From IMG/VR virus record IMGVR_UViG_2909309443_000003: a stretch of 31,051 nucleotides of DNA, one strand, 5' to 3'. The notes beneath the pieces were generated by a model that was not told the origin of the DNA, did no database searches, and saw nothing but the letters and a program-made list of their open reading frames with translations. Position 1 is the first letter of the stretch, and every line of letters starts with the position of its first letter. Both the position numbers and the translations under genes were made by a program. The DNA is from a virus (taxonomy: Duplodnaviria; Heunggongvirae; Uroviricota; Caudoviricetes). Shown in pieces: positions 23,558-29,988 of this stretch.

Positions 23558-23767
23558 CTATGGTCGACGTGGTGGCGGTGAGTAATGTGTCGGCTTGCTG
23601 ATGCTATCCAGCTTGCCGTAATTATCCCTGACTATTTCGGCACACCCGACCAGCTCGGCGGGTGTCAAATTCTCATTGACCATTATCTGCTGCAGACGAT
23701 GAACGATGGCCATCAGTTTGATGCTTTTAGTTTTGTGCTGCGGAATTTCGCCCGGTAGTCGATGCAT
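23558..23767 (-). CDS. hypothetical protein (69 aa)
   Basis: ATG at 23767 preceded by GAGGG; sits between the two repeat elements. Confidence 0.5.
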   Translation of the reverse strand: MHRLPGEIPQHKTKSIKLMAIVHRLQQIMVNENLTPAELVGCAEIVRDNYGKLDSISKPTHYSPPPRRP

Positions 23768-23891: not shown

Positions 23892-23960
23892 CTAGCGCCT
23901 CGCGGTGCGAGTTGTTCAACCCCGCCAGCACTGAAAGCAAGTTTCAGCACCGGCGGCGTT
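23892..23960 (-). repeat. 69-bp repeat element, copy 2 (hairpin with GNRA-like loop)
   Basis: Direct repeat of 23487-23555, immediately 3' of the DinI-like gene stop. Stem mismatches on the plus strand (A-C, C-A, A-C) become G-U wobble pairs in the minus-strand transcript. Confidence 0.6.
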
Positions 23961-23962
23961 TG

Positions 23963-24196
23963 TTAATGCAGCCAGCTATCGTCCTCCCATACCTGCTGCA
24001 TGATTTCCATTACTCGTTTTTTATCTTCGTCCAGTTTCAAACCGCTTAGTTCAACGCCATTAGCGGAGCCCTTGCGAATTCGGATAGCAGTCTTTGGGTA
24101 AATAGGTTGAAGATTGCGGTACAGTTCAGCCTCAAGTGCATCCAATGTTGCCTGACTAATTTTTTGCTCTTTATCCAACGTGATATTGATTCTCAT
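23963..24196 (-). CDS. DinI-family protein
   Basis: 77-aa ORF MRINITLDKEQKISQATLDALEAELYRNLQ...MEIMQQVWEDDSWLH; size and N- and C-terminal motifs match DinI/MsgA as I recall it. Lies in an operon behind a LexA box. Confidence 0.75.
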   Translation of the reverse strand: MRINITLDKEQKISQATLDALEAELYRNLQPIYPKTAIRIRKGSANGVELSGLKLDEDKKRVMEIMQQVWEDDSWLH

Positions 24197-24199
24197 AAT

Positions 24200-24382
24200 C
24201 TAATCAGCCTTATAAAAATTATCATCTTCGGTTTCGTTATTCTCGCTGTTTGCTAGGTCTGCAATGAGAGTGAGCGCGAGCTTTAAGTCTGATGGCTTGC
24301 AGTTTGCAATCAGAGATACCTCGGCAATAAATTGCACACAAGCCCACTTTTGCTGCGTTCGGCTGAAATGTTCGCCAACCAT
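24200..24382 (-). CDS. hypothetical protein, first gene of the LexA-box operon (possible antirepressor N-terminal part)
   Basis: 60-aa ORF with GGGAGGG 6 nt upstream of its ATG. In the same frame as the DinI-like ORF, separated only by TAG plus one codon. Confidence 0.55.
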   Translation of the reverse strand: MVGEHFSRTQQKWACVQFIAEVSLIANCKPSDLKLALTLIADLANSENNETEDDNFYKAD

Positions 24383-24401
24383 GAAATCCCTCCCACAGGG
24401 T

Positions 24402-24421
24402 TACTGTATATTTATACAGTA
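24402..24421. promoter_or_regulatory. LexA (SOS) box overlapping the operon promoter
   Basis: TACTGTATATTTATACAGTA is a near-perfect palindromic CTGT-N8-ACAG SOS box, about 20 bp upstream of the ATG at 24382 and overlapping a candidate TTGCCA -35 with downstream -10. Confidence 0.8.
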
Positions 24422-24495
24422 GCACGTATTGGCAAAAGATGGGAAGAAAAAAAACGAATAGAGCGATTGCTGTATGTGCATGATATGGATATGAA

Positions 24496-26718
24496 TTACT
24501 CATGTATTGGTTTTGATGCTTCAGCCATCGCCGCAACACGATTAAGGATTTTCCGAGCTTTAGCCTCATGCGATGGTGCTGCGGAAAATATTTCTCCTTT
24601 GGCCGTTCCGCGTAGCCATTTACCATCAAAACAACTTTTACCACCGGCCATCAGGTGCAGGGCTTCGCCCCGGCTGATATTAATGCCGGTTGTCAGATGT
24701 ATCTCATCGATAGTTTTAGCTATAGCTGCGTTTTGCTCATCCGTTCCGTGGATGAATTTTCGCCGTGCTGCTGGCTTTTGCTTCCTGAGTCGGTTGGTCA
24801 ATTCTCGTCTTTCACGCCGACTCAGTGGTTTTGTTAAATCCAGTATCGGTGGATCGCTTTCGCTTCCCGTACAGTTATTGACAGAACTCCGAGGGACGGC
24901 TTTGCCGTCCTGAAGGTCAACGGCCAAATCAACAGCACGCTTCGGAACAATCTTCCACTGAGTGAGCCGGGTTAAAATCGGGCTTCCTGCACCTATGGAG
25001 GAATCGTAGACCCCCTTAATACATACCGTTTCCTCACCGTACTGATTAAGCTCGGTACGCGGTTCATACAGTGTGCGCACCTGTAAATCATCGCGACGGA
25101 CAAACGGCCCACCCTGAGCATTAACATAACCAGCCCAGTCACCAGCGTCGGCGGCATCATGGACGGCGGCAAACTCAACGCTCAGACCGTGCGCGGTTTC
25201 GGTATCAGCGAGGCGACGCAACTCACGGTAAACCGTCACCGGCGCACCACCAATAAACTGAAACTGACGGATGTGCCAGCGCGCAGCCCATGCTGAAACG
25301 GCGGGGGCTGTCTCTTTCAGCAGCTCACCGCTTTCATCATCGGTTTCACCATCGAGAGCATAACCGTCGATATTTTTTGAAATGTATTTAGCAACATAGC
25401 CGGTTGCGCTGCCTTTCTCCGGGTCAATGGACTCCGCGTGGAAACGTGCTTTTTGGGATTTATCGCTTTTCAGTTCGTGGCGGTCTTCTTTCCATGCGTA
25501 TTTACGGACGATGGAGCGAACATATTCAACATCTTCCGGCAGCATGAACATCAGCATGTGCCAGTGTGGAGTGCCGTCGTGATGGGGCTCGGCGACACGA
25601 ATACCGAAAATACGGACATCTTCCCGATGTAGTTTGGCACGGATACGCGCCCAGATACCGGTTAGATAGTTTTGCGTGTCAGCCGGGCTGGCACCGCTCC
25701 ATTTGCTGTTACGGTAACCGGCTTTAGTCGTGGCGTGATATTTTGACGGCGCGGTTAGAGTGTAAAACTCACCGACATAACCGAGCTCATTACAGATGTT
25801 TTCAAACCCACGAATGCGGGTCATGAGCTCACAGCGGCGAATCGCAGGGTTAGCAACTGAGCCATCATATTTTTCAATTAGGCTGATACGGTTGCCGTCT
25901 TCGTCTTCGAGATCCAGACCTTTGAGAAATTCACGAGTGCGGCGCTTTTGTTCACGCCAGTCAGTCACGCAGTTTTTACTCGCGTAAGTGTTTTTTTTCT
26001 TACTGACGTTGCCGACTGCAATTTGCAGGTGTTCGCGCCACGTAGCTGCTACACGGCGCAAACGACCGCGCCACCACCCATCGTTAAACATTTTGGCGAT
26101 AGCCGGTGCGATTTCATCCGCACCGACATATTTTTTTTCAACCCGCTCCCAATGTGGTGGGATAACGTTGAATTGGAGGGAAATAAAGCCAGCACGAATA
26201 TACCAGGTGTACAGCGTTTTAAGCTCGCCGAATCCGTGGTCATTAATGTTGGCAAGTTCACCACGAATGAAATTAGCAATATCAGCGGCCAACAGGTCAA
26301 CATCAGCGCGCGACATGTCCGGGAGACGGTTATATCGGGCGACCATATTAACCATGCGTGACGACAGATATTGCATTTGCTGAGTATCAAAATGACTTCC
26401 AAAAACAGCGGTTGATACCTTGCTGTTGATACCAGCGCATTCGTATTTTTTTGCGACCAGTTCAAGACGCGGCAATGCCTTTTTGCAGAAGCTGATTAAA
26501 AATGCATTGGCTCGTTGACTACCCTGATTTTGTTCCAGCACCGCAGCAGTGCGATAAACATCTAACCGCACGCAGTCGGGCTGGAGAGAAAGCACCTTTT
26601 TTGCATGCAGCAAAGCCGCGAACATACGGTCGCGGCGATGCTGTTGCTCATAAGTAAGGTATGGGCTGGAGATTGCCGACCGTGGGACGTTCCACGGATA
26701 AGCGAATTGAACAGCCAA
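24496..26718 (-). CDS. A: rolling-circle replication initiator (P2/186 A protein family, HUH endonuclease)
   Basis: 740-aa ORF with an HUH-like motif (GTPHWHMLMF) and a Tyr-containing active-site motif (YVAKYISK). Confidence 0.85.
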   Translation of the reverse strand: MAVQFAYPWNVPRSAISSPYLTYEQQHRRDRMFAALLHAKKVLSLQPDCVRLDVYRTAAVLEQNQGSQRANAFLISFCKKALPRLELVAKKYECAGINSKVSTAVFGSHFDTQQMQYLSSRMVNMVARYNRLPDMSRADVDLLAADIANFIRGELANINDHGFGELKTLYTWYIRAGFISLQFNVIPPHWERVEKKYVGADEIAPAIAKMFNDGWWRGRLRRVAATWREHLQIAVGNVSKKKNTYASKNCVTDWREQKRRTREFLKGLDLEDEDGNRISLIEKYDGSVANPAIRRCELMTRIRGFENICNELGYVGEFYTLTAPSKYHATTKAGYRNSKWSGASPADTQNYLTGIWARIRAKLHREDVRIFGIRVAEPHHDGTPHWHMLMFMLPEDVEYVRSIVRKYAWKEDRHELKSDKSQKARFHAESIDPEKGSATGYVAKYISKNIDGYALDGETDDESGELLKETAPAVSAWAARWHIRQFQFIGGAPVTVYRELRRLADTETAHGLSVEFAAVHDAADAGDWAGYVNAQGGPFVRRDDLQVRTLYEPRTELNQYGEETVCIKGVYDSSIGAGSPILTRLTQWKIVPKRAVDLAVDLQDGKAVPRSSVNNCTGSESDPPILDLTKPLSRRERRELTNRLRKQKPAARRKFIHGTDEQNAAIAKTIDEIHLTTGINISRGEALHLMAGGKSCFDGKWLRGTAKGEIFSAAPSHEAKARKILNRVAAMAEASKPIHE

Positions 26719-28780: not shown

Positions 28781-29641
28781 ATGAGTTCTGAGCTTGATGT
28801 TCAGTGGCGTGTTAGTGCAACGAACGGCGTATTGGAACGCTTAATGTCAGCCTATGGGGTCAAGATGCAAAAGGATTTGGCTGACCTGCTAGGTATCGCT
28901 AAACACAGCGTTAGCGGCTGGGTTCAGCGTGATGCAATACCTGGCAATGTCATAGTTAGGTGTTGTCTTGACACGGGAGCTGATATCAATTGGCTTGTAA
29001 ATGGAGAACTTGCAAATGCAAATCACGAGCGAGCCAGTTGCAAGTTAAAAGGCAAAGAGCTTTATGACGAGATTATGACGAATGGTGGTAAAACCGTTTT
29101 GCGTAGGATTCTTGATGCGTATGGCTTTACCATGCAAAAGGAGCTCGGTGATTTGCTCGGCATTTCCTCTGGCACAATTAGCACATGGGTAAGGCGAGAT
29201 TTTTTCCCTGGTGATGTTGTTGTTACATGCGCTCTTGATACCGATACGTCACTGGAATGGTTAGCAACAGGCAAGGGGCAAATGCGAGCTAACAGGGAAG
29301 ATGTCACATCTGGTTTTTCTATTAAAAAATCTCGTCTTGAATCTGGTGAGCTTAAGGATGCAGGAACGTGGCATCCTGACCCCTCAATGATTCCTTCTAA
29401 CTCAGGGGAATTGATTTTTGTTGACGGTGTAGCTGCCTCTTGGCTTGTCGACTGTTCTGCTTCGAATATAAGTAATGGTCGCTGGTTAATTGATATCGAC
29501 GGCGCTCTTGATGTTTTTGATGTAATTCGCTTGCCCGGTGGAAAAGTCAGGTTGTCAAATAAGTCTGCTGAGTTTGAATGCAACATTACAGACATTACTC
29601 CTGCCGGGGCTGTAGTTTTCACATTGGAAAAACACGTGTAA
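28781..29641 (+). CDS. cI: CI-type immunity repressor with duplicated N-terminal DNA-binding domain
   Basis: 286-aa ORF with AGGGG upstream of the ATG. Residues 106-164 and the C-terminal domain resemble 186 CI as I recall it. Residues 17-75 are a second copy of the HTH domain (about 55% identical). Confidence 0.7.
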   Translation: MSSELDVQWRVSATNGVLERLMSAYGVKMQKDLADLLGIAKHSVSGWVQRDAIPGNVIVRCCLDTGADINWLVNGELANANHERASCKLKGKELYDEIMTNGGKTVLRRILDAYGFTMQKELGDLLGISSGTISTWVRRDFFPGDVVVTCALDTDTSLEWLATGKGQMRANREDVTSGFSIKKSRLESGELKDAGTWHPDPSMIPSNSGELIFVDGVAASWLVDCSASNISNGRWLIDIDGALDVFDVIRLPGGKVRLSNKSAEFECNITDITPAGAVVFTLEKHV

Positions 29642-29649
29642 GGGACATT

Positions 29650-29988
29650 ATGAAATGTAAACTCTTTTTAGCTCTGCTTCTTACCCTTTCTTTTGGAGCC
29701 TCAGCCGCTGAAAAAACACAGGATTTAGATGGCGCTAAGTTTGGTGAGGATTGGCCGTTAACTTTTGAAAAAGCTACGGTGTCTTGTGTCAACGGTAAAT
29801 ATGCCTTTGTGTACGACAAAGCAACAGATGACCGATACCCATTAAATGGTTTTGCGATTGATGGAGTAAAGTCTGGAAAGCTTGAGGGGAGCAATATTGA
29901 TACTGTTTGGAAAGATAGCCCGGAGTATGCAGGCGTAAAAATTCCTTTGGATCCTGTAATGGATGCTGCAACAGCACTTTGGGAATAA
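29650..29988 (+). CDS. small secreted/periplasmic protein of unknown function
   Basis: Track ORF trimmed to the ATG at 29650 with AGGGA upstream. MKCKLFLALLLTLSFGASAAEK is a typical Sec signal peptide; mature part about 90 aa. Confidence 0.6.
   Translation: MKCKLFLALLLTLSFGASAAEKTQDLDGAKFGEDWPLTFEKATVSCVNGKYAFVYDKATDDRYPLNGFAIDGVKSGKLEGSNIDTVWKDSPEYAGVKIPLDPVMDAATALWE

Follow-up and report, generated by a model that had tools for sequence, protein, structure and literature searches.

The closest studied phage is 186. Its record (U32222) annotates the promoter p95, a LexA site, a 146-aa Tum protein and three shorter in-frame products; the internal GTG start of Tum95.5 is preceded by GGAGG. 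The p95 SOS operon is traced, in the passages of PMC7708051 and PMC3121763 that cite this literature, to Lamont 1989, Brumby 1996 and Shearwin 1998, and the last of these is cited there for the binding of Tum to the CI repressor, a reversible antirepression in which CI is not cleaved. Lemire et al. 2011 (PMC3121763) pointed out that 186 Tum resembles an antirepressor fused to DinI, and that tum of Fels-2 and PSP3 is split by a stop codon. The record of phage PSP3 (AY135486) names the two ORFs tumA (text: "similar to 5' end 186 tum; UV induction of prophage") and tumB (text: "similar to dinI and 3' end of 186 tum"). The assignment of the antirepressor to PSP3 tumA is given in the relevant passage of PMC3121763 as a personal communication that two papers have passed on. 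GenBank and the literature have contained the split tum of PSP3 and Fels-2 since 2002, and the DNA analysed here carries another copy of this known locus.

Here we describe positions 23,963 to 24,421 of a virus DNA of 31,051 nucleotides (IMG/VR record IMGVR_UViG_2909309443_000003), the whole of which is called the window. An earlier note, made from the letters of the window, had described these positions as a tum homologue split by an amber codon and had offered three explanations: a nonsense mutation, stop-codon readthrough or a natural two-protein design. The locus survey and the PSP3 annotation favour the last of these, and we read the locus as an ordinary PSP3-type tumA/tumB SOS operon in its two-gene form, with a probability of about 0.88.

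By its sequence matches the window is assigned to Eganvirus, i.e., to the 186/PSP3 group of P2-like phages; the best matches over 25 kb were to Eganvirus phages. PSP3 showed 95.5% nucleotide identity to the window over 601 nt of the tum locus, and the two ORFs found in the window are the ones that its record names. The same tumA/tumB pair is present in the isolated phages SEN1, SW9, SI22, Midge and RCIP0057. A prophage copy identical to the window across the tum locus was found in the chromosome of E. coli TW10598, where PGAP annotated two intact CDSs (one labelled hypothetical protein, the other DinI family protein) and set no pseudogene flag. Among 5426 complete E. coli genomes, 81 contained the tum locus. 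The otherwise closest phage genome, vB_EcoM-613R3 (ON470592.1), matched the 601-nt tum region in two pieces (35594-36601); this match is spread over approximately 1 kb, which implies an insertion of approximately 400 nt inside or beside the tum operon.

The SOS operon follows replication gene A (24496..26718, minus strand) at a distance of about 75 nt, as it does in 186 and PSP3, and int, cI and cII of the window lie at 27.7-31 kb. Between cI and int, at 29578-29988 on the plus strand, there is a gene for a DUF2511 protein of 136 aa whose N-terminus resembles a signal peptide. The gene has the appearance of an accessory gene expressed in lysogeny (a moron), and the equivalent position in PSP3 is taken by orf28.

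The tumA ORF (24200..24382, minus strand) codes for 60 amino acids that are 98% identical to PSP3 TumA. It is preceded by the Shine-Dalgarno sequence GGGAGGG (24388-24394), and it ends with FYKAD and the stop codon TAG (24200-24202). A single codon, ATT (24197..24199), separates this stop from the ATG (24194-24196) of tumB (23963..24196, minus strand), whose 77-aa product begins with MRINITLDK and is 99% identical to PSP3 TumB. Both ORFs are in the same frame, and the anatomy given in the earlier note, an ORF of 60 codons followed by TAG, one codon and an in-frame DinI-like ORF of 77 codons, is thus correct in every element. Since tumB starts 3 nt past the tumA stop and is not preceded by a good Shine-Dalgarno sequence, its translation is likely to be coupled to that of tumA.

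The LexA operator, TACTGTATAAATATACAGTA, lies at 24402..24421 on the minus strand and overlaps the -10 hexamer of the operon promoter. The earlier note had placed a LexA box over the promoter of this minus-strand operon, and it is indeed there; the letters quoted in the note were those of the plus-strand complement. The box has perfect arms and occurs once in the window. The pattern CTGT-N8-ACAG was found once (0.30 expected), and none of 100 shuffles contained the box with up to three mismatches; being unique in the window and absent from the shuffles, it does not plausibly owe its origin to chance. Aligned with the LexA site annotated in 186, the box corresponds to it position by position. 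In the locus survey described below, CTGT-N8-ACAG was present 35-40 nt upstream of the start codon in 102 of 104 TumA-type and in 82 of 82 186-type loci, and across the TumA-type loci the arms were invariant and the spacer variable.

The p95-like SOS promoter (24416..24445, minus strand) consists of a -35 hexamer TTCCCA (24440-24445), an 18-nt spacer and a -10 hexamer TACTGT (24416-24421), as compared with TTCACA and TACTGT in the annotated p95 of 186. A scan of the tum locus with the generic sigma-70 consensus detected no promoter, so the call rests on homology; in a three-way DNA alignment, promoter and operator are conserved almost base for base between the window and 186. Directly after the tumB stop codon, a 15-bp RNA hairpin without a U tract (23922..23956, minus strand) has a folding energy of -33.7 kcal/mol (z = -3.8 relative to shuffles). 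It is located where the partial terminator t95a is annotated in 186, and a corresponding function may be assumed for it from this position. A downstream ORF (23558..23767, minus strand; 69 aa) is a homologue of PSP3 orf37 according to the PSP3 annotation and matches phrog_11386 (1.7e-47); by analogy with 186 orf97 it may be a distal gene of the SOS operon.

TumB matches Pfam DinI (PF06183) with an E-value of 7.4e-24 and 84.3 bits (cut-off 24.2), covering profile positions 2-63 of 63. Its score against the host DinI equivalog NF007893 of NCBIfam is 52.3 bits and thus below the 111-bit cut-off, which makes it a DinI-like protein and not an orthologue of host DinI. In PHROGs it belongs to phrog_189 (RecA filament binding protein DinI). 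That profile has 151 positions and TumB covers only 71-148 of them, so the profile evidently includes fused Tum-like proteins. TumB is 47% identical (5e-28) to residues 71-145 of 186 Tum, which, together with the 186 record, bears out what the earlier note says of 186 Tum, namely a length of about 146 aa and a DinI-like C-terminal half. In RefSeq, all 186 Tum products, the full-length antirepressor included, carry the label 'RecA filament binding protein DinI', and the antirepressor function is hidden by this label.

The N-terminal half is far more diverged. TumA gave no BLASTP alignment with the N-terminus of 186 Tum, yet the similarity is significant by more sensitive comparisons. A Smith-Waterman alignment of VQFIAEVSLIANCKPSDLKLALTLIADLA from TumA with VEMIARLTAEGTCQERDREIALNLIAEIA from 186 Tum scored 60, as against 21.3 +/- 4.1 for shuffled sequences, and 0 of 5000 shuffles reached 60 or more. 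The alignment of the two protein families with hhalign, over their conserved cores, gave an E-value of 6.7e-6 at a probability of only 85%. Identity to residues 13-52 (approximately) of 186 Tum is about 33% over 33-41 residues. By these comparisons, TumA and the N-terminus of 186 Tum are remotely homologous. The conserved part of TumA comprises residues 10-45, which form its core, whereas the acidic tail is variable; the predicted structure is a two-helix hairpin of moderate confidence (pLDDT 68). The protein search yielded 208 TumA homologues; among the 120 matches listed nearly all were 60-61 aa long, and those with names came from more than a dozen enterobacterial genera. The median dN/dS of tumA over 990 allele pairs was 0.086, and the gene is thus under strong purifying selection.

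For the survey of the tumA/tumB junction, 22 species-level loci and two sets of 80 IMG/VR loci each were collected and the junction was scored in each locus. A protein search with the 186 N-terminus was unsuitable for counting fused and split forms, because the matches listed were mostly short or truncated and included no full-length 146-aa Tum; the IMG/VR DNA loci were used instead. No fused TumA-TumB ORF was found in any of the 104 TumA-type loci, whereas 81 of 82 close 186-type loci were fused. In 101 of the 104 TumA-type loci, the tumA ORF measured 60-61 codons. Its stop was at the same position in all of them, i.e., in at least 15 genera, and TAG, TAA and TGA were all used.

A separate DinI gene was present in 58 of the 104 TumA-type loci, and 46 had none downstream. 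Regarding the 58 loci with DinI, 54 showed the arrangement of the window, TAG followed by 3 nt and ATG (eight haplotypes of the TAG-NNN-ATG junction among relatives); the other four had gaps of 2, 13, 17 or 94 nt, with tumB in frame 1 or 2. Some of the loci without DinI retain a relic 'TAG GTT ATG' or 'TAG ATT ATG' that is followed by unrelated DNA, which suggests that a deletion removed DinI from these lineages. N-modules of the 186 type likewise occur as stand-alone genes for 63-76 aa after gene A, with no DinI gene. The same TumA is also paired with different DinI alleles: two loci, from E. coli APEC E18055 (L187, 1249-1665) and Escherichia sp. E1V33 (L005), have an identical TumA (WP_000232651.1) and the same 3-nt gap and differ in the DinI-like allele, the one in L005 being only about 47% identical to TumB. 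The junction of tumA and tumB is therefore a recombination boundary between modules. Taken over all loci, the survey gives a clearer view than the notion of a split tum gene: the antirepressor module is autonomous, and DinI is an optional extra that is portable between loci.

The presumed target of TumA is the immunity repressor encoded by cI (28781..29641, plus strand; 286 aa). It has two tandem CI-type HTH domains (PF07022, matched twice) in front of a 186-type CI C-terminal domain (PF16452), and is 98% identical over 286 aa to PSP3 CI, which shares the duplicated HTH form. Its identity to 186 CI, a protein of 192 aa with one HTH domain, is 32%. The pairing of Tum and CI types was examined in the 131 IMG/VR loci that included enough upstream DNA. 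CI was closer to PSP3 CI in 62 of 63 TumA-type loci and closer to 186 CI in 67 of 68 186-type loci, so that the type of the Tum N-module and the type of CI agreed in 129/131 cases (Fisher p about 2e-35, the loci not being independent). Gene A, which lies between the Tum and CI loci and served as a control, shared about 88-90% identity with either reference A protein in both groups and hence was not partitioned by Tum type. The association with Tum type was weaker for cII, which adjoins cI. The pairing is confounded in part by common descent and by the linkage of genes in the immunity region; it is circumstantial support for a specific relationship between TumA and CI. The two mismatches are a TumA-type gene with a 186-like CI (L258; 66% identical) and a 186-type Tum with a tandem-HTH CI (L321; 45% identical to PSP3 CI). 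Such loci may represent hybrids of changed inducibility or point to cross-reactivity.

It is conceivable that TumA is not an antirepressor at all and has some other SOS-linked role, induction being brought about by TumB or by a downstream ORF (orf37 or orf38). TumA resembles 186 Tum only weakly, as described above, and the databases offer no function: no TumA family exists in Pfam or NCBIfam, and phrog_1993, to which TumA belongs, is labelled function unknown in PHROGs. We nevertheless consider such a role very unlikely. The conserved cores of TumA and of the 186 Tum N-terminus align, the type of TumA tracks the type of CI, and N-modules of both the TumA and the 186 type stand alone under a LexA box in phages without DinI. 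In Gifsy prophages, non-polar deletions of dinI had no significant effect on induction (PMC3121763), and the personal communication on PSP3, in the passage of PMC3121763 that relays it, agrees with an antirepressor. TumA is very probably what decides SOS inducibility in a widespread group of enterobacterial P2-like prophages. It is this gene that annotation pipelines name "hypothetical protein" (PGAP) or "unknown function" (PHROGs).

Readthrough of the TAG, which the earlier note had offered as a second explanation, would mean that the in-frame stop and the single codon after it are kept for a small fraction of a 139-aa TumA-TumB fusion that is important to induction, either by programmed or by leaky readthrough. 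Such a fused protein is functional in 186, tumA and tumB are in frame, and TAG, 3 nt and ATG are kept in all 54 loci (eight haplotypes) of the lineage. However, being in frame has a prior of one in three, and the 54 in-frame loci are closely related, so that shared ancestry explains the conservation of this spacing. TAG is normally the rarest stop codon of E. coli. It is over-represented as the stop of tumA, where it occurs in 48 of 65 distinct alleles; 8 of 20 clusters formed at 10% divergence contain no other stop. TAG is still common in the 46 loci without a downstream DinI gene, though, and its excess may reflect shared ancestry only. Other TumA lineages use TAA and have tumB in frame 1 or 2 at gaps of 2, 13, 17 and 94 nt. 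A readthrough arrangement thus fails to hold across the relatives, in which all three frames (0, 1, 2), gaps of 2-94 nt, three different stop codons and 46 loci without any downstream ORF are encountered. ARAGORN found no tRNA gene, and hence no suppressor tRNA, in the window, and a passage of PMC3121763 reports antirepressor activity for PSP3 tumA alone. The chance that readthrough is what maintains the arrangement is accordingly slim. No better are the prospects of a version confined to the PSP3 sub-lineage, in which selection would keep the rare, RF1-only TAG together with the in-frame one-codon spacer, and in which readthrough, at a low level or complete in supE-type hosts, would give a 139-aa, 186-like Tum that tunes the induction threshold; if it were true, the frequent TAG at the tumA stop would be its trace.

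That a once-fused tum was broken by the amber codon, with SOS induction blunted or abolished, was suggested by the single 146-aa ORF of 186 and the fusion of 81 of 82 close 186-type loci, and can be dismissed as having next to no probability, given 0 of 104 TumA-type loci fused, a stop at one position in at least 15 genera, a dN/dS of about 0.09 for the 60-codon ORF, intact CDSs without a pseudogene flag in PGAP, the presence of the stop in the isolated, plaque-forming phages PSP3, SEN1, SW9, SI22 and Midge, and a SEN1 producer strain marked as inducible by mitomycin C (PMC5261728, Table 2), which might carry other prophages. The junction and operator of SEN1 are identical to those of the window. 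Functional PSP3 and SEN1 thus share the two ORFs and the stop between them, and the split is no anomaly but the normal state of this lineage. In speaking of a tum homologue split by an amber codon, the earlier note agrees with what has been published on PSP3 and Fels-2 (PMC3121763) as far as the arrangement is concerned; the gene is neither broken nor recoded.

For the two-gene PSP3-type operon the following course of events can be proposed. In the lysogen, host LexA, bound to its box across the -10 hexamer of the p95-like promoter, would keep the operon off. After DNA damage, activated RecA would promote the self-cleavage of LexA, and the operon would be transcribed. TumA, a predicted helical hairpin of 60 aa, would then bind the PSP3-type CI, as is described in the literature for 186 Tum and its own repressor; the lytic promoter would be released with CI uncleaved, and the prophage induced. 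TumB (77 aa), probably made by translational coupling, would most likely modulate RecA filaments and the SOS response, and would thus be an optional accessory placed outside the switch.

Among the known systems, the operons of the three phages Gifsy-1 to Gifsy-3 (GfoA, GftA, GfhA) also combine a LexA-controlled small antirepressor with a separate DinI homologue and leave the repressor uncleaved (PMC3121763). They differ from the window in having dinI first, in belonging to lambdoid phages and in that their repressors are not of the 186 CI type. The split tum of Fels-2 and the stand-alone 186-type genes annotated as 'Tum protein' have the antirepressor module alone downstream of gene A (PMC3121763). 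Their N-modules, which share about 80-90% identity with residues 1-60 of 186 Tum, belong to the 186 type and not to the TumA type, and the stand-alone examples P0164 and P0230 have no DinI gene downstream.

Phage 186 has its LexA-repressed promoter at the same genome position as the window, with a nearly identical promoter and operator, and it makes a free DinI-like product from an internal start, the GTG of Tum95.5, with which the ATG of tumB aligns exactly. In contrast to the window, 186 has both modules in one polypeptide of 146 aa, joined by a linker (about 18 aa) that the window lacks; in the three-way DNA alignment, about 36 extra nt of linker are found in 186 where the window has the stop. 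The N-modules of 186 and the window are about 33% identical, the cognate CI proteins are of different types, and downstream of the modules 186 has orf97, whereas the phage of the window has orf37 and orf38 there. Because the TAG at 24200-24202 separates the modules and none of the 104 TumA-type loci is fused, the locus is filed as a PSP3-type variant and not as 186 Tum proper. With tumA/tumB of PSP3 the window shares the genes, their order and spacing, the junction GAT TAG ATT ATG, the LexA box and the location after gene A, and it is distinguished from PSP3 by point differences only. The comparative results leave the known mechanism unchanged.
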